This document shows positions 12,367-51,525 of a stretch of DNA of 56,801 nt, piece after piece (within the stretch, counting starts at the first letter, position 1; each line of letters starts with the position of its first letter). A program made the translations under genes and the position numbers. The DNA lies in assembly GCA_964554805.1 (NCBI GenBank), contig CAZKPX010000004.1:13638-70438 (forward strand). The letters run 5' to 3'. The notes beneath the pieces are model-generated. The model saw only the letters and a program-made list of their open reading frames with translations. It was not told the origin of the DNA and ran no database searches. Source of the stretch: an uncultured Candidatus Saccharibacteria bacterium. Lineage in GTDB: Bacteria > Patescibacteriota > CAZHWT01.

Positions 12367-12434
12367 TGCTTCACCGATAATCTGAAGTATGGTACTTTAA
12401 ATATGCTAATAAATTTACGCATCGTATAATCCGC

Positions 12435-14757: not shown

Positions 14758-14768
14758 TATAGGAGAGC

Positions 14769-16079: not shown

Positions 16080-16082
16080 ATA

Positions 16083-33541: not shown

Positions 33542-33725
33542 GAGGTTATAATTCCTGAAGAGTTATACATTTTTGATAAAACAATGGTAACACAGTATCG
33601 CATATCTCGCTACAGGATACTGTGAATAGCAGCGTCATGTATCTTGTCATACGCGCAGCAGCCTTACCGCCATGTATGATACCACGGATAGTCTGATTGT
33701 ACACTACCTAAATGAAGGGGCAAAG

Positions 33726-35066: not shown

Positions 35067-35100
35067 GTTGAACCATGGCTGTAGTCATGGTCGGTCATGG

Positions 35101-36405
35101 CTAAGGCATAAAGTTTTTAAGCCAGCCCAACAGACCATCGCCCACCTTAGAGATATTGCCTAGACCACCAAAATTGGCTCGTCGTCGGGATTCGCCGCCT
35201 ACCTTGGCACCATAAATAATAGTCCCCACTGAGGCAGCATAGGCTGGAGAGATGACTTCTTCTATCAAGCCCGACACGCCTTTAGGTTGAGCAACTCTGA
35301 CCGGCACGCGAAGGCTATCCTTAATCGTCTCGGACATGCCAACAGTATTAGCTGCGCCACCACAAATTACCACTCCGGCTGGTAACAATCCTGCATAACC
35401 ACTCTTTTTGATTTCCAGCGCCACCAAATCAAAGATTTCTCGGAGTCGTGGTTTAATCACCCCTTCGACAACAAATTTTTTGGAAATAGTTTTTAGCTCT
35501 CCAATATGAAGCTCACTAATATCAAGCGCATCTTCCCGCTGCGCTTCTTCTCTCAGGGAACGCAACGGCTTATCTGTCGCATCTGACTTAGCAGCAGGTC
35601 GGGCTGCTGGCTCTCGATAGCTTGACACAAATAGCTTAATCTTTTCAGCGTCTTCGAGCGAAACTCTCAGACCAATTGCTATGTCGTTGGTGATGTTTTT
35701 CCCACCGACAGGCAATACGGCTGAATATGCCACTGCTCCGTCAAGATATAAGGCCAGATTAGTTGTCCCACCACCAATATCAAGCAAGACGACACCGAGC
35801 TCCTTTTCGGTGTCACTCAGGGTTGACTCGGCGCTGGCCAAACCGGCAAATACTAGTTCGCTGACTTCTACTCCAACCTGCTGGACGCAGCGAACAAGGT
35901 TGCGCATCGTCATAGCTGCACCTGATATGATGTGTGTCTCGACTTCTAGCCGCACACCGCTCATGCCGGCTGGATCATGGACACCTTCTTGTGTATCAAC
36001 AATAAAGTTTTTTGGGACAACATGAATAATTTCTCTGGAAGAAGGGATCGATATGGCACGGGCAGCTTCGGTAACGCGAGCAATGTCGTTATGACTAATC
36101 TCACCATCGGGAGATGAAATAGCCACCACGCCATGCGAGTTGAGGGAGGTGATATGGTTTCCATTAACTGTAACAAAGGCCGATGAAACCGTGTAGCCAG
36201 CCATGCGCTCAGCCCCTTCAAGAGATTCGGCTATCGCTTCGACGGCCTGATCAATATCAACTACAACCCCTTTTTTTATGCCTTTTGAAGCTACAGTTGA
36301 TACACCGATGATTGATAATAAGCCATCAACTCCTTGAGAAGCGATAATAGTGCAAACCTTGGAGGAGCCAATATCAATACCGGAGATAATTCGATCTTTT
36401 GCCAT
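35101..36405 (-). CDS. ftsA: Cell division protein FtsA
   Basis: 434 aa. Actin-fold motifs GIDIGSSKV, LDIGGGTT and CGGAANT. Confidence 0.95.
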   Translation of the reverse strand: MAKDRIISGIDIGSSKVCTIIASQGVDGLLSIIGVSTVASKGIKKGVVVDIDQAVEAIAESLEGAERMAGYTVSSAFVTVNGNHITSLNSHGVVAISSPDGEISHNDIARVTEAARAISIPSSREIIHVVPKNFIVDTQEGVHDPAGMSGVRLEVETHIISGAAMTMRNLVRCVQQVGVEVSELVFAGLASAESTLSDTEKELGVVLLDIGGGTTNLALYLDGAVAYSAVLPVGGKNITNDIAIGLRVSLEDAEKIKLFVSSYREPAARPAAKSDATDKPLRSLREEAQREDALDISELHIGELKTISKKFVVEGVIKPRLREIFDLVALEIKKSGYAGLLPAGVVICGGAANTVGMSETIKDSLRVPVRVAQPKGVSGLIEEVISPAYAASVGTIIYGAKVGGESRRRANFGGLGNISKVGDGLLGWLKNFMP

Positions 36406-36632
36406 AATTTATAAATAGAGCGCCAAGGATAATAACCGATACCAGAAAACTATATGTTTTACATATCAATCATCAGGCAAGCGAGCGAGAGGTGCTACGA
36501 TGAATAGAATACAATGTTGTGTTTGCTTCAGTCAAGAGTAAAAATGGTTTTAGGCCTTATTATGCTTGCTTGATATTTTGATCTACTATTGGACACAAGA
36601 TGTAGTATCTTTAAAATTTCTCCAGCACAATT

Positions 36633-37460
36633 CTAATATTGCAACACTGGTCTATCAAACCTCAAATCAACAACTTTTGGAGTTTTTTGCTGCTCTTTGA
36701 AGGTTTGCAGCAGGTCAATAATTGTAAGGACCACTTGATCGGCTGGCAGCTGGAGTCCTACTAATATTTTTGGGTCCTTATCAAGTAGTACGTCTAGCTG
36801 TTGATTATTTAGAGTAATAGAAGCTAGCCCTGGTTCAATTTGCCTTAGCCCGGTAATGAGATGCAGCGCTACATCAACGCCCTGTGCAGGAATCGTGTCG
36901 CCGACTTTGAGATTGGCGTTCTGGGTTACAATTTGAGGCAAGTTATGTGATGGCTTGTCTGAGAATATTAACCCTTTTTGATTGACCAGAAAGCGGCCTT
37001 GTGGCGCGACAATTTGGGCCAATGCAATATGAGGCTGGAATTGCACCTTAAGCGTGCTGGGGTACTCTTTTACTACATATACGGCGGCTATTCCGGCAAG
37101 CTTTTGCGTTAGATCTTGGTTTAATTTAGACTCATTAAGCAGGACCAATGACTGACCTTGATAGGCCTGCAGGGTTTGGCTAACCTGACTTTCGGTAACC
37201 ACTTCGGGGTCAACCATGACAAGCTGAGTCGCTTGAATGTGCCTGACGACCAACCAGCTGGTATTTACCAGTTGCCATATTGCGACAAGGATACCAATGC
37301 CTATTAGACTCGAGATTAGGATCAGGACTAGCTTGTGACGAGCTGCCCATGAACTACTTGGTTGGTTGTAAGTAGGCACCCGAGCGCTGACGGCTCCCTG
37401 TCTGGGATTGACTGACTGTGGTTGAAGCGGGTTGGTGCGGCGACGTTTAAACATGGGCAA
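36633..37460 (-). CDS. ftsQ: FtsQ/DivIB-like cell division protein (TM plus POTRA)
   Basis: 275 aa. Basic N-terminus, one TM, POTRA-like region. Sits in the position between murG and ftsA. Confidence 0.75.
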   Translation of the reverse strand: MPMFKRRRTNPLQPQSVNPRQGAVSARVPTYNQPSSSWAARHKLVLILISSLIGIGILVAIWQLVNTSWLVVRHIQATQLVMVDPEVVTESQVSQTLQAYQGQSLVLLNESKLNQDLTQKLAGIAAVYVVKEYPSTLKVQFQPHIALAQIVAPQGRFLVNQKGLIFSDKPSHNLPQIVTQNANLKVGDTIPAQGVDVALHLITGLRQIEPGLASITLNNQQLDVLLDKDPKILVGLQLPADQVVLTIIDLLQTFKEQQKTPKVVDLRFDRPVLQY

Positions 37461-37483
37461 GCATTATATGAAACTGGACAGCT

Positions 37484-38647
37484 TTATGATACAGACCGGG
37501 CTTGGGCAAGACTAACCGTGATAGATGCTAAGACTTGATCTGCATCAAGCTTGACTAGCTGCTTAGCAGCATCCTTTTGCTGCTGAGTAGGTGGGTGCGC
37601 TAGCTGCTGTTCAATTGTATCGAATAATACTCTATCGGACAAAAGACTTTCTTTGACGATTGTGGCTGTCCCCGCCTCCACTAGCGCCTGAGCGTTTTTG
37701 GTCTGCTCATCATGTGTCACCCATGGAATAGGGATGCAGATGGCTGGCAGACCCCAATAGGCCAGCTCTAGGATCGTATTAGCGCCAGCCCGACATACCA
37801 CTAAGCTAGCTGCTTTATAGATATGACCGATTTGGCTGACTGCCAATTGCTGGAGCGGTAAGTAGTCTTGAGCTAATTTGCTTGGCAACCTTTTTTGCAA
37901 TTCTGTCAATCTTTCATAGTCAGCGAACTTTTGATTGGATCCCGTTTGATGAATAACTCTATACACCGTTAATAATTTTTCTAGATCCTGCTCCACTGCT
38001 AGGTTGATAACATGCGAACCAAGGCCACCGCCCGTAACATAAATAAGCGGCTTGGCGGACTTGCGTTGCAGCCAGCCAAGAACCGGATCGGATTTAAGAC
38101 CATCGCTGGTTGGATTGGCTACCTGCTGGTTGAGCGGATTACCTGTCAGTACGACTTTTTTAGCATTAAAATATGTCGCGGATTGAGGAAAAGTTATGGC
38201 AATGACATTGGCCATACGAGAGGCAATCTGATTGGCAAGTCCAACTGCGGCTGTTTGCTCATGAATAACAACCGGTATGCCTTGCATCCAAGCAGCCCAG
38301 ACAACAGGCAAGGAGACATAGCCACCAGTCGATAAAACTACCTGCGGCTTAAAATCCTTGACCACTTTGAATGCTTGAAAAATACCAGGTACGACACCCC
38401 ACAGTCGGGTTACTGTGGTCAACGACAAACCGTCTCTTTTTAGCTTGCCTGCAGAAATCGCAACAAAAGGAATATCAGTTGGCTGAACTAAGGATTGTTC
38501 AACCGATGGTCCGGTTGAGCCCTCCATGGTCAACGTGCCACCAACATACAATAGTTCCATGTCGGATTGTGCTTGCAACACTTTTGCCACTGCTAGGGCC
38601 GGCGAAACATGACCGCCCGATCCTCCGCCAGTAATCAGAATCTTCAT
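37484..38647 (-). CDS. murG: UDP-GlcNAc:lipid I GlcNAc transferase MurG
   Basis: 387 aa. N-terminal ITGGGSGGHVSPALAV, C-terminal CRAGANTILE. Confidence 0.92.
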   Translation of the reverse strand: MKILITGGGSGGHVSPALAVAKVLQAQSDMELLYVGGTLTMEGSTGPSVEQSLVQPTDIPFVAISAGKLKRDGLSLTTVTRLWGVVPGIFQAFKVVKDFKPQVVLSTGGYVSLPVVWAAWMQGIPVVIHEQTAAVGLANQIASRMANVIAITFPQSATYFNAKKVVLTGNPLNQQVANPTSDGLKSDPVLGWLQRKSAKPLIYVTGGGLGSHVINLAVEQDLEKLLTVYRVIHQTGSNQKFADYERLTELQKRLPSKLAQDYLPLQQLAVSQIGHIYKAASLVVCRAGANTILELAYWGLPAICIPIPWVTHDEQTKNAQALVEAGTATIVKESLLSDRVLFDTIEQQLAHPPTQQQKDAAKQLVKLDADQVLASITVSLAQARSVS

Positions 38648-40005
38648 ACCTGTAGTATAGCAGCTTGTTTAAAAACTTGCCCCCGGTGCTTATAATCTGA
38701 AAACATGTCAAAACTTTTTGCTCCTGGTGACAACAGGACTATGCCGGTAGAAGCGTGTTGCTGGAGTATTACTCTTGCTTTTGATACTGCTTTTGCTATA
38801 TCTGCTTGATCATAAACCATGGGGATAGTTATGCCGATAGTTTCGGCAGCTCCATGAATTGAGTCTGAATCTTGCCCCATAACAACAATGGCCTTGAGGT
38901 GTTGACATTGAGATAGATCTTTTAATACCGCAGCCCAATTTGCGTGACGATTCTGGCCACCCAGTAGAAGGACCACCGGCTTATCAAATGCCTGCACGGC
39001 TGCCAGGGTAGATTCGGGCGTGGTGGAAATAGAATCATCTATGTACTCAATTCCGTTAATTGATGCTACTGACTCTAAACGGTGTGGCAGTGGCCGATAT
39101 TGGCTAATAGCTTGGACAATGGTGCTGTCATTAACTTGATTTAAATGGGCTGCCATGGCTGCTGCTGCGATATTTTGTAGATTATGTTTACCGAGCAAGC
39201 TCATTTGCGGCAGAGCGATGCTGACTGATCGGTGTTTATTAGTAATCTCCAATGAATCGGCTGCATAGTGGATTCCTTGCTCTACGGCCTTGCCACTCAT
39301 GGCGAAGCGTTGGGCTGAAGTACTAACAATTTGACGGGTTAAAGAAAAGTCATTGTTGAATATAGCTATGTCGTCGATGGTTTGATGTTGAAATAGTTGA
39401 CTTTTGGCTTGCAAATAATTTGATAGTCGGCCATGCAGCTCTAGATGTTCGGGCACTATCATGAGACCAATCGCCATATGGGGAGAATACATAGCATCCC
39501 ATAATTGATAACTAGATAGTTCTGCGACAACAACATCTTGTGGCCCTACTTGGTCAATAATATCTAGGAATGGCACACCAATGTTGCCGGCCAAGTGCAC
39601 TCTTTTTCCTGACAACTTAAGCATGTCATGTAATAATGAGCTGGTTGTCCCCTTGCCTTTTGTACCAGTAATGCCAATCGTTTGAGCAGCGAATTGCTGG
39701 AGAAATAGATTAGTTTGGCTAACAATTTTTAGGGGGTCGATCCCTTGTAGCGCCGAATGATTTGGATTGAATGAAGGGGTGCGAAAGATTAAGTCAAAAT
39801 GATTTAAATCCAGCTGACCATACTCTCCAACCGTAACTTCAGGGATAGTTTGAGCTTCAACCCGCCTATCAAAAATTGTAATATCTTTAACATAATGTCG
39901 TTGAAGAAACTTAACTGTGGATTTTCCTTCTATACCGCACCCTAGCACAGCCACTTTTGGGAAATCATTTAGCAGAGAGATGTATGATTCGTTGCTTGGT
40001 TTCAC
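38644..40005 (-). CDS. murD: UDP-MurNAc-L-Ala:D-Glu ligase MurD
   Basis: GITGTKGKGTT P-loop and Mur ligase layout. The preferred start is GTG at 40003-40005: AAGGAG lies 5 nt upstream and GTGA overlaps the upstream stop. The ORF track starts at 40023. Confidence 0.88.
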   Translation of the reverse strand: MKPSNESYISLLNDFPKVAVLGCGIEGKSTVKFLQRHYVKDITIFDRRVEAQTIPEVTVGEYGQLDLNHFDLIFRTPSFNPNHSALQGIDPLKIVSQTNLFLQQFAAQTIGITGTKGKGTTSSLLHDMLKLSGKRVHLAGNIGVPFLDIIDQVGPQDVVVAELSSYQLWDAMYSPHMAIGLMIVPEHLELHGRLSNYLQAKSQLFQHQTIDDIAIFNNDFSLTRQIVSTSAQRFAMSGKAVEQGIHYAADSLEITNKHRSVSIALPQMSLLGKHNLQNIAAAAMAAHLNQVNDSTIVQAISQYRPLPHRLESVASINGIEYIDDSISTTPESTLAAVQAFDKPVVLLLGGQNRHANWAAVLKDLSQCQHLKAIVVMGQDSDSIHGAAETIGITIPMVYDQADIAKAVSKARVILQQHASTGIVLLSPGAKSFDMFSDYKHRGQVFKQAAILQV

Positions 40006-41414
40006 GATAGCTCCTTTGACCACTTCTGCTCTAGTAGATTTGTTAATCGTTGTGGCAGCTGATGGCTGTTAGCCACAGACATAGACAGGAGCACGTCGCC
40101 TGGTTGCAATTGCTCTGCTAGTCGATCAAGTGCTTGGTCAACATCCTCAACAACATGAATGTCTGCCGGACTGATTATTTGCCGAGCAATATCTGACGAA
40201 CTAATGTCGGCAGAGATTGACTCTTCGCGAGCCGCTTCAATTGGTAGTAATAAAATATGGTCAGCCGAGCTAAAAGCCGATGCATAATCCTGCAGCAATG
40301 CTTTGACGCGCGAGTAGGTGTGTGGTTGATAGCAAGCCCACATTGAACCATGTCGCCACTGCTGAACAAATCGTTGTTTGGCACCACTGATGGTGGCTTT
40401 GATCTCGCTGGGATGGTGAGCATAATCGTCGATAATCGTAATGTGGTTTACTTGGCCCGTTATGACAAATCGACGATCGGCTCCAGCAAAGGTCTGCAAA
40501 CCTTTGCTAAATGAGCTATCAGAAATCCCCAACAGATTGCAGACAATGTACGCTGCACTGACATTGAGCGTATTATGCTGTCCCGCCAGAGGGCTCTTTA
40601 TGTCGACATGCTGATGTATAGATTGGAGAGTAAAAGTAGTTTGGGGATGGTATTTTTGACTATTAATTTTCCAGTCAGACTCCCCTGTCTGCCCATACCA
40701 AATTATTCGATGGGGCTTCCCGGATAAGAGCTGAGGTAAGTATGGATCATCGGCGCAGGCAATGATTATTTTATCTGAAGGCATAGAGTCAACCAGCTCA
40801 TCAAAAGCCTTAATAACATGATCGAATGTCGGAAATAAGTCAGGATGATCCCATTCAAGAGAGGTCAGAATCAAAATATCAGGATGATAAAACATGAACT
40901 TAGATCGCCGATCAATTTGCGATGAGCTGTATTCATCCCCTTCGATAATTACAACCTGGCTATCTGACAATTTAACACTTCTGCCTAGATTTGCCCCCTT
41001 CATGCCGATAAGGTAATCAGGATTATAGCCCGCTTGATCCAATAGCCAGGCGATCAATGTAGTGGTGGTAGTCTTGCCGTGAGTCCCACTTACGACGATT
41101 CGTTTCTTGCGGGCGGTTAACTCCTCGACCAGCTGCGGAAATGATTTAATTTCTAGATGAAGTCGCTTTGCTTCGAGTAGCTCGATATTGTCGGCAGGTA
41201 TATCATTGGCTAAAACAACCATATCCTGATGTTTCAGATGTGACTTATCATATGTGGTATAAAACTCAATACCTGCCTCAATCAAATCGGTGCTAGCAGG
41301 CGGGTAGGCGTTAATGGCCACTCCCGACACTCGATGCCCCTCTCTAGCTAACTGCAGAGCAAGTCCGCTCATCACTTGGCCACATATGCCGATAAAATAG
41401 TATCCTTTAGTCAT
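40002..41414 (-). CDS. Active Mur ligase of the MurC/Mpl family with Mpl-like signatures
   Basis: 470 aa. IGICGQVMSGLA...NAYPPAS N-domain, SGTHGKTTTT P-loop, EGDEYSSSQIDRRSKF, LEWDHPDLF and DDYAHHP. Confidence 0.85.
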   Translation of the reverse strand: MTKGYYFIGICGQVMSGLALQLAREGHRVSGVAINAYPPASTDLIEAGIEFYTTYDKSHLKHQDMVVLANDIPADNIELLEAKRLHLEIKSFPQLVEELTARKKRIVVSGTHGKTTTTTLIAWLLDQAGYNPDYLIGMKGANLGRSVKLSDSQVVIIEGDEYSSSQIDRRSKFMFYHPDILILTSLEWDHPDLFPTFDHVIKAFDELVDSMPSDKIIIACADDPYLPQLLSGKPHRIIWYGQTGESDWKINSQKYHPQTTFTLQSIHQHVDIKSPLAGQHNTLNVSAAYIVCNLLGISDSSFSKGLQTFAGADRRFVITGQVNHITIIDDYAHHPSEIKATISGAKQRFVQQWRHGSMWACYQPHTYSRVKALLQDYASAFSSADHILLLPIEAAREESISADISSSDIARQIISPADIHVVEDVDQALDRLAEQLQPGDVLLSMSVANSHQLPQRLTNLLEQKWSKELS

Positions 41415-41462
41415 AGAAATATACCTAATACGCTACATTGTATACTATATTTGATATATATT

Positions 41463-42632
41463 CTAGACTTTTTGAATTTTTTGGCGAGATATATTAAGCA
41501 CTATGCCGAGGGCGACTAACAAAACGACAAGCGATGTGCCGCCGCTAGAGATGAAGGGCAATGGCACGCCGGTTAGTGGGATAATGCTGACCGCTGCCAA
41601 TAAATTGATAAGGCTTTGGATGGCAATGAGCGACATGACACCGACAATAATCAACCGGCCTTGTTCGTCTGGCGCTTGATGAGAAAGTTTGAAGCCTTGC
41701 CATATCAGGTAGCCGATGATCAGAATCACGATCACTGCTCCTAAATAGCCGAGCTCTTCCCCAATAATAGCAAAGATGGAGTCAGATTCAACCACTGGTA
41801 ACCATTCATACTTTTGCTTGCTTTGCCCCAAGCCCAAGCCGGTCCAACCGCCACTGCCGAGGGCTATGAGCAACTGATTGACCTGGTAGTCAGCATTTTG
41901 GGCGTCGCCAGCTCCACCCCTAAGGAAGGTGGCGATGCGCTGCAAGCGGTAGGGCTGAGTAATAATCAAGATCAATCCAGCCAAACCAGCAACCGGCAAC
42001 AATATCAGGAAATGGCTGAGGCTTGCACCAGCCAAGAAGTACATAATGCCGGCTACAGCCATAATAATAGCGGCTGTGCCCAAATCTCCTTGAGGAACGG
42101 CCACTATAGCGGCAATCAAACCTACCAAAACCATATAGGGCACAAAACCCTTCTTGACTGACTTTAAATCGATTTTCTCGCTGGTTAACCACTTCGCCAA
42201 ATAGATAATCAAAGCAATGATCAGTGGATATGACGGTTGAAATGCCGGCAAGGGACCGATCTTTAGCCAACTGGTGGCACCGCCCAAAGTTACACCGAGA
42301 CCAGGAATAAAAACTGCAAATAAGCCAATGATGGTCACAGCTAGGATTAGCGGGGATAGCTTTAGCCATGTGTGGTACTCTACTCTACTGACAATAAACA
42401 TCGCTACTAGGCCCAAAGCCAAACTAATTGCTTGCTGACTCACAAAATGAAAATTATGGCCGTAGCGCGACATGGACACCACCACTGAAGCATCGTAGAC
42501 CATTAATAAGCCGAAGGCGGTGAGGGCCAGGACGGGTGCAAGAATGCGGAGGTCGAGTTTGGAGGAGCTGGTGTCACCAGCGGCTCTTCGACCAGATAGT
42601 ACTTTTCCATGTTTTAAGCGAATTGTAGACAT
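41463..42632 (-). CDS. ftsW: SEDS glycosyltransferase FtsW
   Basis: 389 aa, polytopic. SDSIFAIIGEELG and PLPFISSGGTS motifs, in dcw context. Confidence 0.9.
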   Translation of the reverse strand: MSTIRLKHGKVLSGRRAAGDTSSSKLDLRILAPVLALTAFGLLMVYDASVVVSMSRYGHNFHFVSQQAISLALGLVAMFIVSRVEYHTWLKLSPLILAVTIIGLFAVFIPGLGVTLGGATSWLKIGPLPAFQPSYPLIIALIIYLAKWLTSEKIDLKSVKKGFVPYMVLVGLIAAIVAVPQGDLGTAAIIMAVAGIMYFLAGASLSHFLILLPVAGLAGLILIITQPYRLQRIATFLRGGAGDAQNADYQVNQLLIALGSGGWTGLGLGQSKQKYEWLPVVESDSIFAIIGEELGYLGAVIVILIIGYLIWQGFKLSHQAPDEQGRLIIVGVMSLIAIQSLINLLAAVSIIPLTGVPLPFISSGGTSLVVLLVALGIVLNISRQKIQKV

Positions 42633-42673
42633 AATGGGCAGGGTGCTACTAATTTACATTACGGTGGCGCTGT

Positions 42674-43684
42674 TTATAGCAAGGCTATCCACAAACCGAG
42701 AAAAGCGCTTAAGATGCCGAATAGCCAGAAGCGCATTGTAACTTTCGTTTCAGTCCATCCTTTGGCCTCAAAATGATGATGCAAAGGGGCTATGAGGAAG
42801 ACTTTTTTGCCACGGAACTTTTTGGAGGCCATTTGAATTGCTGATGAGGCGAGCTCAACCATAAAAACTGCTCCGATAAATGGCAGCGCGAAGACATTTT
42901 GGCTCATTAAAGCAATGACTGCCAAGGCGGCGCCCAGAGCTAGTGCTCCAGTATCGCCCATAATGAATCGGGCAGGGTATATATTGAAGTATAGGAAAGC
43001 CAATACTGAGCCAATAAGGATAGCAATAAATAAAACTACATCAGCCGTTGAAAAGGCTGCGGCTAGATAGAAGAACGCTGCCAAGGCGATTAAAAGTAGG
43101 CCGCCGGACAGGCCATCCAAGCCATCTGTAATGTTAAACGCATTTGACATGGTGGCAATAACAAAGGCGGCGAAGGGGATATACCACCAGCCCAGCACAA
43201 TCTCCGTATCGAAGGGCAGTCTAATACTATCAAAACCCATATAGGTGTAGAGTAAGTACCCAACTACTAGACCAAGCAGCAGTTGGACAATCAACTTACT
43301 TCGAGCTCTCATGCCCCATAAACCTGAAGCCGGCGCCTCAAGGAATTTTCGGAGATCGTCATAGAAGCCCAGTGCCCCAAAGGTAATGAGAGTTATGGCC
43401 AGAATGCCGATTGTCCAGTTAACTTTGAAACTCGTGAATTGGTAAACGGCAAAACCTAGCGCAAGTACAGTAAAGATAATCAATACTCCACCCGCAGACG
43501 GCGTGCCAATTTTCGACTCATGGAGCTGGTCTATTAGATCTACTTGCTTGACTTGTCCTTTAATATATTCCCGCTGTCTCTGGAATTTTAATTTGTACAG
43601 AAGGTTGATAAAAGGCACAGCCAAGGCGGCGGCGATACCGGTTGATAGAAGAAGGGTGAGGAAGACTTTAGACATATAGGCCAA
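42674..43684 (-). CDS. mraY: Phospho-MurNAc-pentapeptide translocase MraY
   Basis: 336 aa. NAFNITDGLDGL and APLHHHFE motifs. Confidence 0.95.
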   Translation of the reverse strand: MAYMSKVFLTLLLSTGIAAALAVPFINLLYKLKFQRQREYIKGQVKQVDLIDQLHESKIGTPSAGGVLIIFTVLALGFAVYQFTSFKVNWTIGILAITLITFGALGFYDDLRKFLEAPASGLWGMRARSKLIVQLLLGLVVGYLLYTYMGFDSIRLPFDTEIVLGWWYIPFAAFVIATMSNAFNITDGLDGLSGGLLLIALAAFFYLAAAFSTADVVLFIAILIGSVLAFLYFNIYPARFIMGDTGALALGAALAVIALMSQNVFALPFIGAVFMVELASSAIQMASKKFRGKKVFLIAPLHHHFEAKGWTETKVTMRFWLFGILSAFLGLWIALL

Positions 43685-43709
43685 TCATGATTACATCATA
43701 TCAGAATGT

Positions 43710-44708
43710 TTAGTGTTTGGGAGGATCAGGCTTACGATAGGCTTCGAGAGCAAGGGTGGCAGCGGCTTGAGCTGGGCTCATAGTCGGCTTGATGATTCGG
43801 GTTTGAGGGTTGATTCTTCTTAGTTCGGCTTCGAATCGTCGATAGAGGTATCGACTATTGAGAATGGTGCTGCCAATAATAACTAGTGAGACTTTGGCGT
43901 CTCGCCAATCCAGCTTGGTCATGACAGCATCTACCATTTTCAATAGTTCGTTGACTGAGTGATTGAGTATGTGTTGAGCAACATGATCACCATCTTCGGC
44001 TACATCTGAGGCTAAGATAGCCAAGCTGGCTATCGAGGCTTTATCGGTATATTTCCGATAAATTACCTGATACATCTCATTCAGGGTATCTACCTGGAGG
44101 TGCTTAAAAACTGCTTTGGTTAATTTGGTGGCATCTGATCGCCCATCGAGATCTGAAGTAACAGCTCGCAGAATGCGCAATCCTATATCATAGCCGCTCC
44201 CCTGATCCGACATAATATAATCCAGTCCGCCCGCTTGGACTATTTGCCCACTTTCGGAGCGTGCCAGACAATTAGATCCTGTTCCGGATAGTAAAATGAT
44301 GCCGACGCTATCCTCTACTCCGGCCCTCAAGGCGATCAAGCTGTCATTAACTACTGTCAGTTGGCCGATCATGGAGCTAAGAGAGCTGAGCTTGATGGCT
44401 TTTTCAAGGACTTGGTGATCATGATCAAAATTGTTTCCGGCTAGACCGAAGACTGCTTGATCAAATACCAAGGGCGGGGGAACTTTCAGCTCTGCTATGG
44501 CTTCTTGAACTGCCATTTCCAAATTGGCAATGACTGCCTCTAGACCAATCGTATGATAATTAGCGCCGACAGGAAATGTTTGTTGATAGATGGATTGCCC
44601 TTGCTGGTCAACGATGGCTACGGTAGTATTGCTGGCTCCGCCATCTATGCCAATAAATAGTTGTTCGTGGATTAGTCTTGATTTATTAGTCATATGTATT
44701 CCCATCAT
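43710..44708 (-). CDS. BadF/BadG/BcrA/BcrD-type ATPase, N-acetylglucosamine-kinase-like sugar kinase
   Basis: 332 aa. IGIDGGASNT, SGTGSN and GGLDYIMSDQGSGYDIG motifs are intact. Alternative ATG at 44693. Confidence 0.75.
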   Translation of the reverse strand: MMGIHMTNKSRLIHEQLFIGIDGGASNTTVAIVDQQGQSIYQQTFPVGANYHTIGLEAVIANLEMAVQEAIAELKVPPPLVFDQAVFGLAGNNFDHDHQVLEKAIKLSSLSSMIGQLTVVNDSLIALRAGVEDSVGIILLSGTGSNCLARSESGQIVQAGGLDYIMSDQGSGYDIGLRILRAVTSDLDGRSDATKLTKAVFKHLQVDTLNEMYQVIYRKYTDKASIASLAILASDVAEDGDHVAQHILNHSVNELLKMVDAVMTKLDWRDAKVSLVIIGSTILNSRYLYRRFEAELRRINPQTRIIKPTMSPAQAAATLALEAYRKPDPPKH

Positions 44709-44713
44709 GTAAT

Positions 44714-45967
44714 CTAGTCATGTCTGTCTATTTTTGCCCCCAATTTAATCAATCGATCTGCTAGCGATTCAAATCGCCCATCAATGGCGGCCATGTTGTG
44801 GAGCGTGCTTTGCTCATTGGCTGCTAACGATAGCAACAATCCAACAATACCGCCTGCAAAATCATTGACTGTATACTCAGCCGATTTAATCTTAGTTGGA
44901 CCAAATAAATGAAGGTCTTGATCTACTAAATAGCCGTCAACCAAAAACGCTTTAAGGCACGATAAAGCCTGCGCCAATTCATCTTCATGGTCGGAGCTAA
45001 AAATGCACTCACCCTGACTGAGACTAGATAGCGGTGTGAATAAAAGTAGCCAATCTTCGCTTAAGCCTGGGAAGGGCTTGGCAACTAATTGAATCGGCTG
45101 CCATTCCTGGTCGTGGGTATCTCGCCAGAAACGAATACTGCGACTATCAACTGTATATCGACCAGTCATCTGCTGGATTTTGGCTAAGAACGGCATGATA
45201 AGGGCCGATTTTACCCCTTCTATTTGAACATCACCGGCAGTCATATAGGCAGCAGTGGCCAAAAAAGCTGCCTCATAGCGATCTGGGACGATGGCGTGGG
45301 TGGTACCGGCCATTTCTGATTGCCCTTGAATTTGAAGTCTTGATTCATCTACTCGGTCGATAACGCCATTCATATGCCTTAAACACTGCATCACATCTTC
45401 GACTTCTGGGTTAATGACTGCGCCATCAATCAAGGTTGTGCCATCCGCGGTGGCGGCTAGAATGATAGTGGTGAGGGTTTGATCAGAACCCATACTTTGC
45501 AAATCCAGAGATGCGGCATGGAGATGGTTAAGAGATATTACTGTATGAGATTGTTTGGTAATTTGAGCGCCAAATTGTTCCAAAATTGGCCATAAATAGT
45601 TAAAATCCGACTGGAGAGGCGGCGGAATATCAATCGTGAGCTGTCGACACCGTACCAGGATGGCGGCCAGGAGGCTAGGCGGCCAGCCGACGACATCCCG
45701 AGCATCAACAATGGCGCTCGGCGATGCAACTTGGGCTGCATGGACAGTTATTTCATGACTATGCGTCCAATCTATGGCTATGCCAAATCCCCGCAACTCA
45801 TTCATTAGTGTATCTAAATCTTTCAGGTGAGGAACATTTGTAATAGTGACCTTGTCGGTAGTGAGCAAGGAGGCTGCCAGCACTCCGACGGCTGCTAGTG
45901 GCGAGCCTTTTACAGAAATAATGCCGCGGAGCGCAGAGCCACCTTTGACTTTATAGGTGATACTCAT
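44714..45967 (-). CDS. MurA/EPSP-synthase-fold protein, divergent, predicted catalytically inactive
   Basis: 417 aa. The N-terminus YKVKGGSALRGIISVKGSPLAAVGVLAASLL...ITNVPHLKDLDTLMNELRGFG parallels MurA. C-terminus IDGRFESLADRLIKLGAKI. Catalytic positions are substituted (see findings). Confidence 0.7.
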   Translation of the reverse strand: MSITYKVKGGSALRGIISVKGSPLAAVGVLAASLLTTDKVTITNVPHLKDLDTLMNELRGFGIAIDWTHSHEITVHAAQVASPSAIVDARDVVGWPPSLLAAILVRCRQLTIDIPPPLQSDFNYLWPILEQFGAQITKQSHTVISLNHLHAASLDLQSMGSDQTLTTIILAATADGTTLIDGAVINPEVEDVMQCLRHMNGVIDRVDESRLQIQGQSEMAGTTHAIVPDRYEAAFLATAAYMTAGDVQIEGVKSALIMPFLAKIQQMTGRYTVDSRSIRFWRDTHDQEWQPIQLVAKPFPGLSEDWLLLFTPLSSLSQGECIFSSDHEDELAQALSCLKAFLVDGYLVDQDLHLFGPTKIKSAEYTVNDFAGGIVGLLLSLAANEQSTLHNMAAIDGRFESLADRLIKLGAKIDRHD

Positions 45968-47352
45968 GGCTTCGCCGACCTTTTCTGAGCCTGAATCGCA
46001 GCTTGAATGTCGCCTACTATTGGGAGACGATTTTTTGCATGAATGTAATAGATAAGATCGTTAGGCGAGACATGCTTGGCAATAAAACGGGGCAGTTCGT
46101 CGACGGGTATAGAGTAATGTATGGGTTGAGGTGGTGATGCGACTGAAGATGACCGAGATGTGTCCGGTGTATCGATTCGAATTATAATATCTGTCTCATT
46201 TAAGGCCTTTTTAATAACCGATGGGGACAGGTGGCTATACTCATCTTGGCTGATTAACAGCCACAGCCTGGCATCTGTTTTTGGAAGCAAAAATTGTTGC
46301 CTAACTCGATTAATATGTAACTCTAGGTCGCTAGACCACGGCAGGATAGATTCAATAATGTGGATGTCTTGGACCGTGGCTTGCAATGTATCCCAGGTAA
46401 GAAGGCCATTGCTGTTGCCGATTTCGGTTAGAGCTTGCGACATATCCACTTCCAGAGCATGCGCGCAGGCTAGCGTAGCCATAACTGCCGCTACCCCCTG
46501 CTGGCCAATAAATTGACTGGTTAATAATTCCAATGGTTTGGCCTGGAAGTCTGCGCCAAAGGTACTGTTTTGGGTTGTATATTTAATCTTGGTAGCTCGC
46601 CAATCAGCGGCTGAGGTTTGGCCATAGGTGCTGTATTTGAGATTAACCTGTTTGACCAGACGGAGAGATTGTTTATCTTGATCATGGAGAATGACCTGCA
46701 CTGTCGAGGCTGACTGACTATCTGCCATGTGTTTTAGGAGATGCAGCAGGTCCTTGTAATATGTCGATGATAGCTTGCGCGATGGCTCGTGAGCCAGGAT
46801 CACTATGCTCGGACTGAGATATAGCCACTCAGCGGCAGCATCTAGGCAAGAAGCTGGTTGCCAATCGGTGTCGATGACAAGTGTTTTTTTGGCAGCATAA
46901 TGCACCGCAGAGGGGTGCGACCAATGGTTGGTTGTAGCTAGGACTTGATGCGAAATAATATCAGCCGAGTTTTTGGTAGATTGGAGACTGCTGGCTACCA
47001 ATGCTGCTGTGAGAGGCGAGCCTATGACGACAACCTGCTGCTGCTTGGCTGCTAACTGTTGAATGAGCTGAGCGACCGAAACTACCTCCAGTTTCAACTT
47101 CTGAGCTGTCCGTAATTCGGGATTTTGTTTGGCTATCTGAGGACCAACTACAATCAAGCTATCAGGGTTAATATGCTGAGACTGGTATCGACTGTAGCTA
47201 TGGATGCCTGCTTGGTTGAGCTGCTCGTCAAGTGGTGGGGGTAGCTGGTCAGCTGAGCCAGAGACGGCAAAACCGAGCTGCTTGGTCGCCACAGCTAAGC
47301 CTGCCATGATGGGTTGATCAAGGCCAAGAAAATAGAGATGCTGTTTGATCAT
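45964..47352 (-). CDS. Mpl/MurC-like Mur ligase paralogue lacking the P-loop and other catalytic motifs
   Basis: 462 aa. N-domain YFLGLDQPIMAGLAVATKQLGFAVSGSADQLPPPL parallels the adjacent active ligase. The P-loop position reads VVVIGSPLTAAL. ATGA overlap with the downstream MurA-like gene. Confidence 0.7.
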   Translation of the reverse strand: MIKQHLYFLGLDQPIMAGLAVATKQLGFAVSGSADQLPPPLDEQLNQAGIHSYSRYQSQHINPDSLIVVGPQIAKQNPELRTAQKLKLEVVSVAQLIQQLAAKQQQVVVIGSPLTAALVASSLQSTKNSADIISHQVLATTNHWSHPSAVHYAAKKTLVIDTDWQPASCLDAAAEWLYLSPSIVILAHEPSRKLSSTYYKDLLHLLKHMADSQSASTVQVILHDQDKQSLRLVKQVNLKYSTYGQTSAADWRATKIKYTTQNSTFGADFQAKPLELLTSQFIGQQGVAAVMATLACAHALEVDMSQALTEIGNSNGLLTWDTLQATVQDIHIIESILPWSSDLELHINRVRQQFLLPKTDARLWLLISQDEYSHLSPSVIKKALNETDIIIRIDTPDTSRSSSVASPPQPIHYSIPVDELPRFIAKHVSPNDLIYYIHAKNRLPIVGDIQAAIQAQKRSAKP

Positions 47353-47358
47353 ATGATC

Positions 47359-47367
47359 AGTATAGCA
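47359..47367 (-). promoter_or_regulatory. Extended -10 element (TGCTATACT) placing a predicted TSS on the ATG of the ligase paralogue (leaderless candidate)
   Basis: Minus strand reads GCTTGCTATACTGATCATATG. There are 6 nt between the -10 hexamer and the ATG at 47350-47352, and no SD is possible. Confidence 0.4.
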
Positions 47368-47472
47368 AGCTTGGGAGCCCGCTGTCTTCTGTCTTAGGTT
47401 TGACCTCTACTCGACTGCTGCATTGAGACTGGGAGGTTTGAGGCTGGAGCTGGAGTGATTAATGTTTAGTTC

Positions 47473-47788
47473 ACCGTCATTGCCACTCCGCCAGCTGGCG
47501 GAGTGGCAATCTAGCTATGACTGATATATTTTTCTCAAGTTACATTCGGCCAAAAGCCATTGTTTTTGTATGTCATTTTTTCACCTCAAATAAACATTTT
47601 TTACTAACCTTTGTGTCTATGGGTAGTATTGAATTTGCTTAGGGGCTCTCCCCGTCAAGCTAGGAGACCAGTATTTGAGGTGAAAGAAATGAATACAAGG
47701 GTTTTTATTTAAATGCAGAAGACAGTTGCAGCTACTTTGTATTTTTAACTTTAATCTTTGCCTTTTGACTTTTGATTTTTGCCTTTCC
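47473..47788 (+). repeat. Composite intergenic repeat unit, copy A (module M1, spacer, module M2)
   Basis: M1 (47473-47597) starts with a 32-nt perfect palindrome (47479-47510), followed by GGCAATCTAGCT...TTCGGCCAAAAGCCATTGTTTTTGTATGTCATTTTTTCAC.TCAAATAAACAT. M2 (47646-47788) runs CTCTCCCCGTCA.GCTAGGAGACCAGTATTTGA... and ends in the TTTGCC low-complexity tail. Matches 52862-53173 by eye along its full length. Confidence 0.85.
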
Positions 47789-47908
47789 AATACCTCATCA
47801 AGTTGACTAGATTGCCGCTCCGCTTGTTGGGGATGGCAATCTAGCTGTGTCTGATACTTTTTCTCAAGTTGCATTCGGCCAAAAGCCATTGTTTTTGTAT
47901 GTCATTTG
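47789..47908 (+). repeat. Second, partial M1 module (degenerate palindrome plus conserved 3' part)
   Basis: ATTGCCGCTCCGCTTGTTGGGGATGGCAATCTAGCTGTGTCTGATACTTTTTCTCAAGTTGCATTCGGCCAAAAGCCATTGTTTTTGTATGTCATTTG. Confidence 0.8.
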
Positions 47909-48016
47909 TTTCTTGCCACACTGGTGCAGCCAGCTCGGCTGGCGGATATTGAGACAGGAGACGCGAGACGGAAGACACGGGACAAAGCATGCCACATATC
48001 AACAGCTATGAATGCG

Positions 48017-49801
48017 CTACGGAGCCTGCTGCTGGGCGATGCCGTAGTGCTGGAAAATGTCCTTAGCCATGTCCATCCACATCGGTACAACTGTTTCTGC
48101 AGAGTTGTCGATGCGGGGTTTGTCGAGTTTGGCTAACATAATAAATCTTGGATTAACGGCTGGGGCAAACCCAACAAAGGTTGTAATAGTATTGTCCTGA
48201 TCATAACCGCCTTCGACAGCAATCTGAGAGGTGCTCGTTTTGCCAGCAATATCATAGCCTTGAAGAGCGAGGCGTCGAAATTCACCATTTTTGACGACCT
48301 GCTTGAGCATTTCTACAACTGTTTTAGTTGTTTGAGTGCTGTAAACCTGACTGATCTGCTCTGGCTGGACCGTGGTGATTTGGTCTCCTTGCTGCACGGA
48401 CTCGATGATAGTTGGTTTCATCTGCTTGCCTTGATTGGCGATGGTGGCCATCATTTGGAGAAGCTGTATGGGAGTTACTGAAATCCCCTGACCAAATGAG
48501 GCTGTAGCCAGCGTAACCGGCAACCAGTCTTTGGCAGGAGGGATATATCCTTGTGTTTCACCCTGAAGAGTGATGCCAGTCACTCGGTCAAACCCAACCC
48601 TATGGATGGCTTCTAGGAATTTGTCTCGACCTATTTTGAGGGCAAATTGAGCAGCGCCAGTATTATCCGAGGTTTCAAGCATGTGTGTGACGGTGCTATT
48701 GGGGCCTGAATATTTCTTATTAGCGGTTGTAATGGTGTGATCGCCAACTTTGTATGGGGCGCTCAGGTAGGTAGAATTAGGATTAAAGATGTTGCTATCT
48801 ATGCCGGTGGCTACGGTAAACGACTTTATGACACTGCCAGGCTCATAGGTATCAGAAATAATACTATTTTTAAACAATTTGGCATCATCTACTGCTGCAA
48901 TGTTAGACGGATCAAAGGTTGGATAGTTGGCCATTGCTAGTATCTTGCCAGTCTGAGGTTCCATCAAGATGAACGAGCCAGCCTCGGCAGAATTCTTTTC
49001 TACACCTGACTTGAGTTTTGCTTCCAGCAGATATTGTAATCCCCGATTGATGGTAAGCGTAATAGTTTTGCCATTGACAGCTGGGGTAGACGCGTAATTG
49101 CCGACTGGAATTGGATTGCCCTGTGGATCGCGGTCATAGACCGTTTTGCCGTCGCGTCCTCTTAGGTCATGATCAAAATACCCCTCAATTCCATAATATC
49201 CTTGATCCTGCCCTTGATCATTTTGACTGACAAAGCCCAAGATCTGGCTAGCTAATGAGCCTTCAGGATAGTAGCGCTTTTGTTCTGATTGAAAATCTAT
49301 GCCCTTTAACTGCTTGGCCTTTATTTGTTCAATTTTGACTGGATCAATTTTGCGGGCAATGGCCACCCATTTACGATCTTTTTGTTCAAGCTGTTGTTTT
49401 ATTGTGGCGACAGTGTATTTGGCAGGAGTCGGTATGGGGGTTGGAGAGTTGGGAGTCGTACTTGCGGCATCGGTTTGGCTCGAGTCGGCATTTAGAATGT
49501 CAGCGAGATCTGTGGCTGTTTGCTGGCTGTTTTCAATACGTTGAGGTTCAGCGTAAATAAGATAGGCAGGTTGAGTGCTGGCTAGCTCGAAGCCATCGGC
49601 CGATTTGATAGTGCCTCTGATAGCAGGGATTTCTCGACTGATACCATACTGCTGCTCGGCTTTGGCTAAGAACTGAGGGTGCATTACTACCTGGATATAG
49701 GCAAGTCGGACTAGCAAGGCCAAGCCTATGGCAGCAAATACGCCTAAGATAACAGCATAGCGGGTTTTGTTTGGATTATTGTTTGCTCTTGCCCTGGCCA
49801 T
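48017..49801 (-). CDS. ftsI: Class B penicillin-binding protein / transpeptidase FtsI
   Basis: 594 aa. N-terminal TM, SVIK (SxxK), SDN (SxN), and a third motif reading KTS instead of KTG. Confidence 0.9.
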   Translation of the reverse strand: MARARANNNPNKTRYAVILGVFAAIGLALLVRLAYIQVVMHPQFLAKAEQQYGISREIPAIRGTIKSADGFELASTQPAYLIYAEPQRIENSQQTATDLADILNADSSQTDAASTTPNSPTPIPTPAKYTVATIKQQLEQKDRKWVAIARKIDPVKIEQIKAKQLKGIDFQSEQKRYYPEGSLASQILGFVSQNDQGQDQGYYGIEGYFDHDLRGRDGKTVYDRDPQGNPIPVGNYASTPAVNGKTITLTINRGLQYLLEAKLKSGVEKNSAEAGSFILMEPQTGKILAMANYPTFDPSNIAAVDDAKLFKNSIISDTYEPGSVIKSFTVATGIDSNIFNPNSTYLSAPYKVGDHTITTANKKYSGPNSTVTHMLETSDNTGAAQFALKIGRDKFLEAIHRVGFDRVTGITLQGETQGYIPPAKDWLPVTLATASFGQGISVTPIQLLQMMATIANQGKQMKPTIIESVQQGDQITTVQPEQISQVYSTQTTKTVVEMLKQVVKNGEFRRLALQGYDIAGKTSTSQIAVEGGYDQDNTITTFVGFAPAVNPRFIMLAKLDKPRIDNSAETVVPMWMDMAKDIFQHYGIAQQQAP

Positions 49802-50133
49802 TATTTTTCGACCTCTGGGCTTGGAAGATACATCAGATTTTTGTGAAGCGGCTCCATTTTTAGCTCCTGAGTCGCCTGCTGATTAATGTATTGTAGCGAC
49901 TTATACCGAGAAACTTCCTTGGTTAATTGACTTACTTGGTCGGCTAATTGGGATTGTTGGGATAACAAGGCATTGGACTGGCTCCCGATAGCGACTTGAG
50001 TGTTAGTCAAAATTGTTTCGGCGATTAACAAAATTGCCACACCCATAGCCAAGCAAATATTCACTAGGCCTAGCTTGGAGGCTTGATTAGTCATCTTGGT
50101 AGAGCTTGAGCGGACTTGTCTTCCAATCGCCAT
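49801..50133 (-). CDS. ftsL: FtsL/DivIC-like small bitopic division protein
   Basis: 110 aa with one TM and then a coiled-coil-like segment. Sits between rsmH and ftsI with 1-nt overlaps on both sides. Confidence 0.65.
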   Translation of the reverse strand: MAIGRQVRSSSTKMTNQASKLGLVNICLAMGVAILLIAETILTNTQVAIGSQSNALLSQQSQLADQVSQLTKEVSRYKSLQYINQQATQELKMEPLHKNLMYLPSPEVEK

Positions 50134-51086
50134 TATGAAATACCTTTTTTGATTGCAAATCGAAGCTTAGCTGAGCGTGATCGTGGGTTGCGGTCGACTT
50201 CTGGCTGGCTGGCCATAATTGGCTTTTTGGTGACAACTTCTAGTTGGGAATGCTGCAGCATAAAATGCTTGACGATTCGATCTTCCAGAGAGTGAAAACT
50301 CATGACTGCCAAGACACCTTGATCGGCCAAGATTTCAGTAGCGGCCGGCAGGGCTTGCGATAAACTATCAAGTTCAGCATTAACTGCGAGACGTATAGCC
50401 TGAAAAACTCTGGTAGCGGGATGAATGGGGCCGCGCTTGTAGACCACTGGGCTTGCCTGATAAATAATCTGAGCCAGCTGTTTGGCAGAGGTTATTGGCT
50501 TGACTTGACGCTGCGAGTCAATGGCTTGAGCAAATCGGCGAGCATAACGTTCTTCGCCTAAGTTAGAAAAAATGTTTATCAAATCAGGAACTGACAGCTT
50601 GGCAATCAACTCTTCGGCCGTGACTCCGAACTGACCGTTCATTCTCATATCCAAGTTGTCAGAAGAAAAACTAAATCCACGCTCTAGGTCATCTAGTTGA
50701 TGCGAGGATACCCCCAAATCCATCAGTATGCCCATCACCGGTTGGTCGGTGGCAAGTTGAACTTGTTGTGCAATTTGATCAAAATTTGTGTGAATAAGTT
50801 TTAATTGACCTGACTGGCGATAGCTGTCTAAGCGGTGACCTGCGAAGTCAAGCGCTTGCTGATCCTGATCGATGCCAATAACCCTGGCTCCCAGTTGCAG
50901 CATGGCTTCGGTATGTCCGCCTCCACCAAGAGTAGCGTCAATGTAGGTTAAGCCAGCTTGAACGCGTAGACCTGCCATAATTTCATTTACCATAATAGGA
51001 GTGTGGTAGGTGGAAGCAAAGGGGTGGTGGGAGGTTGACGATTGAAGGTTGGTCGCAGAAGACATATTCCGTTTATTGTACCTCAT
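50133..51086 (-). CDS. rsmH: 16S rRNA (cytosine1402-N4)-methyltransferase RsmH
   Basis: 317 aa. HTPIMVNEI, DATLGGGGH, DLGVSSHQLD and SFHSLEDRIVK motifs. Confidence 0.95.
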   Translation of the reverse strand: MRYNKRNMSSATNLQSSTSHHPFASTYHTPIMVNEIMAGLRVQAGLTYIDATLGGGGHTEAMLQLGARVIGIDQDQQALDFAGHRLDSYRQSGQLKLIHTNFDQIAQQVQLATDQPVMGILMDLGVSSHQLDDLERGFSFSSDNLDMRMNGQFGVTAEELIAKLSVPDLINIFSNLGEERYARRFAQAIDSQRQVKPITSAKQLAQIIYQASPVVYKRGPIHPATRVFQAIRLAVNAELDSLSQALPAATEILADQGVLAVMSFHSLEDRIVKHFMLQHSQLEVVTKKPIMASQPEVDRNPRSRSAKLRFAIKKGIS

Positions 51087-51525
51087 TTTTATTGAATGAT
51101 TGTGTGGCTGCTAGCTTTTGAGCTATGACTGAACCCTGATCGGCTAATTGAGTTTGCATTGATTGCCAACGCTCCAGACTCCACACTTCTAACCATTGAC
51201 CTAGGCCAACAAAGACAACTTCCTGATCAAAGCCTGCATGCTCATATAATGGTGCGGGAATAATGCAGCGGCCTTGGCTATCGAGAGTAACCTGATGCGC
51301 CCCACCCATCAAGAATCGAGCGGATGCTCGGGTGTTTTGATCGAGAAATGAGCCTTGGCTGATTGGTTGAGTTATGTTCAGCCACATTTGCTGGTTAACG
51401 ACAATTAAGCAGCCTTCATAGCCACGGCTAATTATGAGAGAATCGCCCAATATTTGTCTAAATTTTTTTGGTATAGCTAGGCGATGCTTCTGCCCAAGCT
51501 TGTACTGTTCTTCGCCAACAAGCAT
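51073..51525 (-). CDS. mraZ: Transcriptional regulator MraZ
   Basis: 150 aa. Two SpoVT/AbrB-like halves (KHRLAIPKKFR and DSQGRCIIPAPL). First gene of dcw. Confidence 0.93.
   Translation of the reverse strand: MLVGEEQYKLGQKHRLAIPKKFRQILGDSLIISRGYEGCLIVVNQQMWLNITQPISQGSFLDQNTRASARFLMGGAHQVTLDSQGRCIIPAPLYEHAGFDQEVVFVGLGQWLEVWSLERWQSMQTQLADQGSVIAQKLAATQSFNKNEVQ

Follow-up and report, generated by a model that had tools for sequence, protein, structure and literature searches.

Why would a bacterium keep, in the middle of its division and cell wall (dcw) cluster, a gene for a protein that resembles MurA from end to end and that nevertheless has lost the residues with which MurA works? This question is raised by a stretch of 56,801 nucleotides (nt) from an uncultured Candidatus Saccharibacteria bacterium (contig CAZKPX010000004.1), the whole of which we refer to as the window. 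In it, an open reading frame (ORF) at 44714-45967 on the minus strand, running from an ATG start to a TAG stop, encodes a MurA-like protein of 417 amino acids (aa). Fosfomycin targets MurA, the enzyme of the first committed step in peptidoglycan synthesis. An original prediction had described this ORF as a non-catalytic MurA homologue that is translationally coupled to a degenerate ligase, and the ORF as well as all peptide strings that it quoted were found at this location. Judged from sequence comparisons, the gene would encode a conserved MurA-family pseudoenzyme, which in the subclade of the window is paired with a putative pseudo-MurC. Automatic annotation calls such proteins "UDP-N-acetylglucosamine 1-carboxyvinyltransferase", and metabolic reconstructions of Saccharibacteria and other Patescibacteria may as a result credit these organisms with a MurA activity that is absent.

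Fold and catalytic residues of the MurA-like protein

The protein matches the Pfam EPSP_synthase model (PF00275) over residues 7-404 of 417 with 107.7 bits, above the gathering cut-off of 22.8 bits. On the NCBIfam equivalog model for MurA (TIGR01072, cut-off 392.7 bits) it reaches 204.7 bits, about half of the cut-off, which leaves it outside the equivalog family; 2 canonical MurAs from Patescibacteria, P0066 and the one encoded on L016, score 459.7 and 463.4 bits and lie above the cut-off (here and below, L numbers are contigs and P numbers are proteins of relatives). A structure prediction, one of the checks suggested along with the original prediction, agrees with the assignment to the MurA family: the AlphaFold2 model, computed from an input alignment of 61 sequences, has a mean predicted local distance difference test (pLDDT) value of 93.0 and a predicted template modeling (pTM) score of 0.91, and Foldseek aligns it to more than 40 MurA crystal structures with template modeling (TM) scores of 0.88-0.92. 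The top match was PDB 9a7b, a model of a MurA2-MurA1 heterodimer. NikO was matched at a TM score of 0.88; for the AroA/EPSPS entries listed, most scores were 0.78-0.81, and a single open-form entry had 0.59. Liganded and unliganded MurA structures matched the model equally well, and the comparison does not separate an open from a closed state. Because of the confidence of the model and its TM scores to MurA structures, the protein is predicted to adopt the two-domain inside-out alpha/beta barrel of MurA. Its family is strongly acidic, with net charges of -15 to -21 versus a median of -3 for canonical MurAs; among the proteins of the window, its acidity is high, not extreme.

For the catalytic residues, we used the E. 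coli MurA sequence as the reference (419 of 419 residues identical to PDB 1UAE chain A), and read the equivalent positions from a pairwise phmmer alignment with H. influenzae MurA and from 3 MAFFT alignments, which included an L-INS-i alignment with 56 canonical MurAs and another with about 150 representatives. Six of the positions are replaced in the window and 2 are kept:

K22 of E. coli MurA: Pro23 in the window
N23: Leu24
R91: Gly94
R331: Leu331
R371: Ala371
R397: Gly397, with an Arg next to it at 398
D305: kept
R232: kept

The loop that holds Cys115 and Arg120 is about 3 residues shorter and variable, and no Cys, Asp or Arg in it is conserved across the family. Position 115 is a Pro or a gap in the window and differs among family members, and position R120 varies between D, H and R. 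Over 130 canonical MurA sequences aligned alongside, K22, N23, R120, R331, R371 and R397 are 100% conserved, R91 is 99% conserved, and C occupies position 115 in 81%, with D in all or most of the remainder. Considering that the replaced columns are conserved at 99-100% in canonical MurAs, the pattern of residue loss is not a matter of alignment noise or chance.

The alignment of catalytic columns, which had also been proposed as a check, thus bears out the expected losses, while 2 of the details have to be corrected. The catalytic loop had rightly been described as devoid of a Cys or Asp nucleophile. K22 and N23 had been said to be replaced by Ser and Pro; they are replaced, but the partners were off by one and should read Pro and Leu. 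Similarly, the Arg of the DLRAS motif is replaced as claimed, but it had been mislabeled as Arg397: DLRAS holds Arg371, and Arg397 lies in HIDRGYE, which is aligned to AIDGRFE in the window.

In the 7 core members of the family, the replacements at K22, N23, R91 and G398 (P23, L24, G94 and R398) are all invariant, and the invariant motifs at the replaced sites are GSPLA (21-25), GW[PS]P (94-97), DW (305-306) and D[GNA]RFE (396-400). D305 is likewise kept in all 7. It is S or A in 3 distant members (L006, P0064 and P0065), which have also lost R232, K20 and R398, and no candidate set of catalytic residues is common to the whole MurA-like clade. Since the cationic residues that bind phosphoenolpyruvate (PEP) and the uridine diphosphate (UDP)-sugar are gone, as is the Cys115 loop, the protein probably lacks enolpyruvyl-transferase activity. 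The label of a non-catalytic MurA homologue therefore seems apt, given the predicted MurA fold, the missing catalytic residues, and a TIGR01072 score of 204.7 against 392.7 bits.

Family, selection and gene neighborhood

To delineate the family, we searched 5.8 billion proteins by means of a word index, ran a profile exhaustively against 1.84 billion representatives and scanned genome contigs. The word-indexed search returned 6 relatives at 41-52% identity, after which identity fell sharply to about 25% for ordinary MurAs. The profile search added P0064 (365 bits) and P0065 (355 bits), and the genome scan added L006, at 34% identity. The family thus comprises about 10 relatives, and the named sources among them are metagenome-assembled genomes (MAGs) labeled Candidatus Saccharibacteria. 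A scan of metagenome contigs for further members returned L088 only, which is the contig of P0006.

The MurA-like protein is under clear purifying selection and is no decaying gene, because nonsynonymous differences are far rarer than synonymous ones, the ORFs are intact, and the protein is as conserved as its neighbors. In the closest pair (P0004/P0005), the proportion of nonsynonymous differences (pN) is 0.084 and that of synonymous differences (pS) is 0.82, which is saturated. The ORFs are intact and full length in about 10 lineages, down to 34% identity, and 93 columns are invariant among the 7 core members. Between the window and L001, the MurA-like proteins are 52% identical, on par with MraW (56%) and the adjoining kinase (57.5%); FtsQ is 33% identical. 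With its homology to an enzyme family whose catalytic residues it has lost, and its selective retention across lineages, the protein has, as far as sequences can tell, the makings of a pseudoenzyme.

The gene lies within a dcw cluster that spans 32348..51525 on the minus strand in the order mraZ-mraW-ftsL-ftsI-[MurC-like ligase-MurA-like gene-kinase]-mraY-ftsW-murC-murD-murG-ftsQ-ftsA-unknown gene-ftsZ. The genes were assigned from the ORF map and Pfam matches, and are listed here in the order of transcription:

51073-51525, minus strand: mraZ
50133-51086, minus strand: mraW
49801-50133, minus strand: ftsL-sized gene
48017-49801, minus strand: ftsI
47353-48016: spacer of 664 nt between ftsI and the MurC-like ORF
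45964-47352, minus strand: degenerate MurC-like ligase of 462 aa (Mur_ligase N-terminal domain only)
44714-45967, minus strand: MurA-like protein of 417 aa without the enolpyruvyl-transferase residues (Pfam EPSP_synthase, TIGR01072, AlphaFold2, Foldseek)
43710-44708, minus strand: MurK-like sugar kinase of the BadF/BcrAD family (Pfam BcrAD_BadFG, match to 8zo3)
42674-43684, minus strand: mraY
41463-42632, minus strand: ftsW
40002-41414, minus strand: murC, intact (TIGR01082, 3 Pfam Mur ligase domains)
38644-40023, minus strand: murD
37484-38647, minus strand: murG
36633-37460, minus strand: ftsQ
35101-36405, minus strand: ftsA
33726-35066, minus strand: gene for a 446-aa protein with no Pfam match
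32348-33541, minus strand: ftsZ

The 3 bracketed genes are tightly packed. The MurC-like and MurA-like ORFs overlap by 4 nt, with the TGA stop of the former inside an ATGA whose ATG is the start of the latter, as expected from the claim of translational coupling, and the kinase starts 5 nt past the MurA-like stop codon. This arrangement recurs across the family. A MurC or MurC-like gene is found immediately upstream of the MurA-like gene in every member with a recovered contig, and a BadF-family kinase is the next gene downstream wherever the contig reaches that far. Where the contig is long enough, the trio lies between ftsI and mraY (the window, L003/L004, L001, L082, L005/L077-L081, L083-L085 and L006); for P0064, the gene order is PgeF-MurC-MurA-like.

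The upstream ligase had been called degenerate, and this is what we found: although homologous to MurC, it is missing the P-loop along with all other ligase motifs. The Mur_ligase N-terminal domain is its sole domain match (39 bits), and its score on the murC model TIGR01082 is 74.6 bits versus a cut-off of 335.1 bits. Neither the P-loop GTHGKTT nor any of the motifs EGDEY, DDYAHHP and PHTYSR is left in the window, L001 or L082, where the ORFs are nonetheless intact, encode 436-462 aa and share 30-33% mutual identity. A word-based search with the degenerate ligase of the window as the query matched itself only. In L005, L083, L006 and P0064, the upstream gene encodes a normal three-domain MurC with all 4 motifs. 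The window has a second MurC (40002-41414), which scores 348.8 bits on TIGR01082, above the cut-off, and has all 3 Pfam Mur ligase domains and all ligase motifs. Going by its sequence, the degenerate MurC-like ORF would thus be a second pseudoenzyme beside the MurA-like one.

On the other side of the MurA-like gene, the kinase matches Pfam BcrAD_BadFG with 112.9 bits, and its best solved structure is PDB 8zo3, a kinase of N-acetylmuramic acid (MurNAc) as well as of N-acetylglucosamine (GlcNAc), which is matched over the full length with 136.6 bits. The DGG and GTGS phosphate motifs can be read in its sequence. The invariable adjacency of this MurK-type kinase suggests that the module is tied to amino-sugar salvage.

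Canonical and degenerate MurAs occupy the same place elsewhere in Patescibacteria. L016, from a Saccharibacteria MAG, encodes a canonical MurA right after ftsI (463 bits on TIGR01072, with all 9 catalytic residues), and the canonical MurA of L104 (P0066) also directly follows ftsI; no such kinase adjoins either of them. When compared, the genes flanking the canonical MurA of L016 proved to be hidden homologues of neither the ligase-like protein nor the kinase. Degenerate MurAs follow ftsI in L105 (candidate division WWE3; 2890-4179) and L106 (6214-7533), and a further one is found in L102 (8001-9239), in the order MurC-MurB-degenerate MurA-DAGK-MraY; the MurB of this contig scores 138.6 bits, just under its own cut-off of 144.5 bits. 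Among the 150 best representatives, most catalytic columns are replaced in 18 further clusters. Patescibacteria murA genes that reside in dcw clusters show a broader tendency toward catalytic loss, which appears not to have been described. A neighbor-joining tree places the family of the window, L006/P0065, P0064 and the WWE3 forms in a single all-degenerate clade. Considering that long-branch attraction is likely here and could yield the same grouping, the tree does not tell whether the degenerate forms arose once or repeatedly.

Possible roles of the MurA-like protein

We favor the reading, to which we assign a probability of about one half, that the non-catalytic MurA persists as a binding partner (a scaffold or a regulator) in the cytoplasmic synthesis of peptidoglycan precursors, with the adjacent MurC or MurC-like protein as the likeliest partner and a tie to amino-sugar salvage through the MurK-like kinase. 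Under this proposal, a murA located just after ftsI in the dcw clusters of Patescibacteria would have given rise to a non-catalytic descendant, which would have retained the two-domain fold and lost enolpyruvyl transfer together with the cationic residues for PEP and the UDP-sugar and the Cys115 loop. Selection would keep the protein for a binding role in cytoplasmic precursor metabolism, most likely by scaffolding or regulating the product of the gene directly upstream. This partner would be an active MurC in the sister lineages and, in the subclade of the window, a MurC copy that turned non-catalytic after the second, intact MurC had taken over ligation. We favor a partnership with MurC mainly because the adjacent MurC copy degenerated and yet persisted. 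The simplest history may be that the MurC beside the MurA-like gene had a role beyond catalysis, and that this role was all that the adjacent copy retained after a second MurC had become available. Cytoplasmic Mur enzymes bind each other, and natural fusions, for example of MurC with MurB and of MurG with MurC, exist (PMC10214165). The MurA2-MurA1 heterodimer model 9a7b is another precedent. A physical contact between the 2 proteins of the module, along with any regulatory output it might have, is inferred.

Comparisons with known systems are instructive here. The second MurA paralogues of Firmicutes (MurAB/MurZ/MurA2) resemble the MurA-like protein in that they may matter in part through protein-protein contacts with the pathway, and not by catalysis alone. 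MurZ and MurA2 are active enzymes that retain the catalytic Cys and the Arg and Lys residues, unlike the MurA-like protein, which has lost them. Akin in concept are CwlM, an amidase homologue that reportedly activates mycobacterial MurA (PMC4946905), and GKRP, a descendant of the MurQ etherase that reportedly regulates glucokinase (bioRxiv 10.64898/2026.05.08.723886). In both, the fold of a peptidoglycan enzyme is reported to have lost catalysis and become a regulator through protein binding. They differ from the MurA-like protein in fold and lineage, and a regulatory role of the latter is a proposal only. Our literature searches on dead or inactive MurA, on MurA or MurB of Saccharibacteria, and on MurNAc salvage in Saccharibacteria found nothing relevant.

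Several points weigh against a role as a binding partner. In a dcw cluster, where every gene adjoins cell-wall genes, being neighbors says little about a specific partnership. In addition, the best-conserved motifs of the core family are those that line the cleft (GSPLA, GW[PS]P, DW and D[GNA]RFE), which would fit a new ligand-binding or catalytic site as well. The tryptophans W67, W281 and W306 of the family are present also in active Patescibacteria MurAs, and for that reason are no signatures of a new function.

The conservation of the cleft leads to the alternative that the MurA fold has been repurposed, as an enzyme or binder of another, less anionic ligand in amino-sugar salvage, acting together with the MurK-type kinase next to it; such a ligand might be, for example, MurNAc, MurNAc-6-phosphate (MurNAc-6-P), or a related muropeptide sugar derived from the host. 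We consider this unlikely, even though a fair part of the evidence is in line with it: P23, L24, G94, W95, P97, W306, R398 and F399 do not vary in the core family, which also keeps D305 and R232, the MurK-like kinase is always the next gene where the contig reaches and is missing beside the canonical MurAs of L016 and L104, and the EPSP-synthase fold is able to support other chemistry, as in NikO. However, D305, R232, K20 and R398 are not conserved in L006, P0064 and P0065, leaving no catalytic set that holds clade-wide, and the equivalents of segments 120-124 and 160-164, which we take to be the segments of MurA that bind the UDP moiety, vary within the family. Literature searches gave no precedent either, and we know of no MurA fold that has been repurposed in amino-sugar salvage.

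Another alternative is that de novo synthesis of UDP-MurNAc has been lost altogether, in which case the MurA-like gene would be the only murA of the genome, MurNAc would be scavenged from a host as in Tannerella forsythia, and the dead MurA would be structural only. The shared position of dead and canonical MurAs after ftsI across Patescibacteria (L016, L104, L105 and L106) is in line with this, as it suggests an orthologous replacement and not an extra paralogue. Moreover, Pfam searches of the window (candidate ORFs of at least 150 aa) found no second murA and no murB, murE, murF or ddl, and tblastn found no second MurA, MurB or Ddl in 117 kb from family-bearing genomes, which is a small part of each genome. 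A kinase of the MurNAc/GlcNAc type has joined the cluster, and for T. forsythia, auxotrophy for MurNAc has been reported together with a MurK kinase (PMC10465942, PMC5790795). On the other side, the absence of murA and murB rests on a fraction of each genome, and L102 has a MurB gene directly beside its degenerate MurA-like gene. Furthermore, the product of a BadF-type MurK is MurNAc-6-P, a catabolic intermediate that is not known to belong to the AmgK/MurU route to UDP-MurNAc. We regard a loss of de novo synthesis as unlikely; it is compatible with a binding role and does not exclude it.

A bolder reading can also be put forward. In several Patescibacteria lineages (this Saccharibacteria clade, WWE3 and others), the dcw-resident murA might have been made non-catalytic, UDP-MurNAc might no longer be made de novo, and the wall might be built from MurNAc or GlcNAc of the host by way of a MurK-type kinase, with the dead MurA, joined in the window by the dead MurC, linking salvage with the Mur ligase pathway as a scaffold or a sensor. 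We offer this as a speculation that is more likely wrong than right by a wide measure; if true, it would provide a molecular basis for the dependence of epibiotic ultra-small bacteria on their hosts for the cell wall. More generally, if these lineages have no other MurA, their MurNAc must come from hosts, which is a testable dependency of epibiotic bacteria. If another MurA is present, the protein would be an undescribed non-catalytic member of the Mur pathway, paired in this subclade with a pseudoenzyme derived from MurC, and this pairing would offer a convenient way into the cytoplasmic Mur multi-enzyme complex that has long been proposed.

It is very improbable that UDP-GlcNAc enolpyruvyl transferase activity persists in the protein by way of a rewired site, in which, for instance, K20 and R398 have taken over from residues one or two positions away. 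K20 does lie 2 residues before the K22 site and R398 one residue after the R397 site, both are invariant in the 7 core members, D305 is kept, and the location of the gene is that of an active murA in related genomes. Nevertheless, the loop at the Cys115 position is short and variable without a conserved nucleophile or acid, R91, R120, R331 and R371 have no nearby substitutes, and the TIGR01072 score is half of the equivalog cut-off. In addition, L006, P0064 and P0065 have none of K20, R398 and D305 despite the same genomic context. Least credible of all is a functionless gene in decay, for which the lost catalytic residues and the equally degenerate ligase next door could be cited, given the pN of 0.084 against a saturated pS of 0.82 (P0004/P0005), the intact full-length ORFs in about 10 lineages, the 93 invariant core columns and the confident fold prediction.

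Related MurAs and the surrounding locus

Compared with canonical MurA (E. coli, PDB 1UAE), the MurA-like protein has the same predicted fold and length, aligns end to end and keeps D305 and R232, and its gene lies after ftsI in the dcw cluster, as do canonical murA genes of other Patescibacteria. It differs in the replacement of K22, N23, R91, C115, R120, R331, R371 and R397, in the shortened loop and in its acidity. The closest relatives of the active type are P0066 and P0067 (MBU0708225.1, Patescibacteria group bacterium), which match the family profile with 257-263 bits and are 27-31% identical. These share W67, H71, W281 and W306 with the MurA-like family, as well as the place right behind ftsI; unlike the MurA-like protein, both keep all 9 catalytic residues, and P0066 has neither MurC nor kinase as a neighbor.

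Most catalytic columns are also replaced in the degenerate MurAs of WWE3 (P0097 and P0112) and in P0117, P0078, P0091 and P0101, and the Patescibacteria examples share the location in dcw clusters after ftsI. However, these proteins are only 20-30% identical to the MurA-like protein and do not form part of a trio with MurC and the kinase; P0078 is encoded beside MurB. Cultivated Thermoactinomycetaceae account for two of the degenerate clusters, which carry a MurA annotation: P0091 (Polycladospora coralii / Hazenella) and P0101 (Staphylospora marina, WP_124728514.1). Both lack R91 and C115; in addition, P0101 has no K22 or N23, and P0091 no N23 or R397. P0101 scores 388.9 bits on TIGR01072, just under the cut-off.

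The dcw cluster itself is undergoing rearrangement within the clade of the MurA-like gene. In the window, murC and murD are placed between ftsW and murG; in L001, both lie outside the dcw cluster; and in L006, a gene for a MurE/F-type ligase and a PgeF (Cu-oxidase_4) gene come before MurC. The 446-aa protein encoded between ftsA and ftsZ has a counterpart at the same position in L001 (18104-19456, 450 aa, 38% identity). The spacer between ftsI and the ligase-like gene measures 664 nt in the window versus 37 nt in L001. It contains a direct repeat of about 80 nt in 2 copies (47504-47581 and 47834-47910), which are 329-330 nt apart and match in 2 blocks at 96% and 86% identity, as well as inverted repeats. 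Rfam and tRNA scans of this spacer gave no match, and it may be a small insertion or duplication.

Outside the dcw cluster, the window contains a surface-polysaccharide cluster at 13483-18538 on the minus strand, with 2 tandem Wzy_C (O-antigen ligase-like) paralogues, a GT1 glycosyltransferase and a Polysacc_synt flippase. Proteins with LysM and Ig-like domains are encoded nearby, at 11608-13469.

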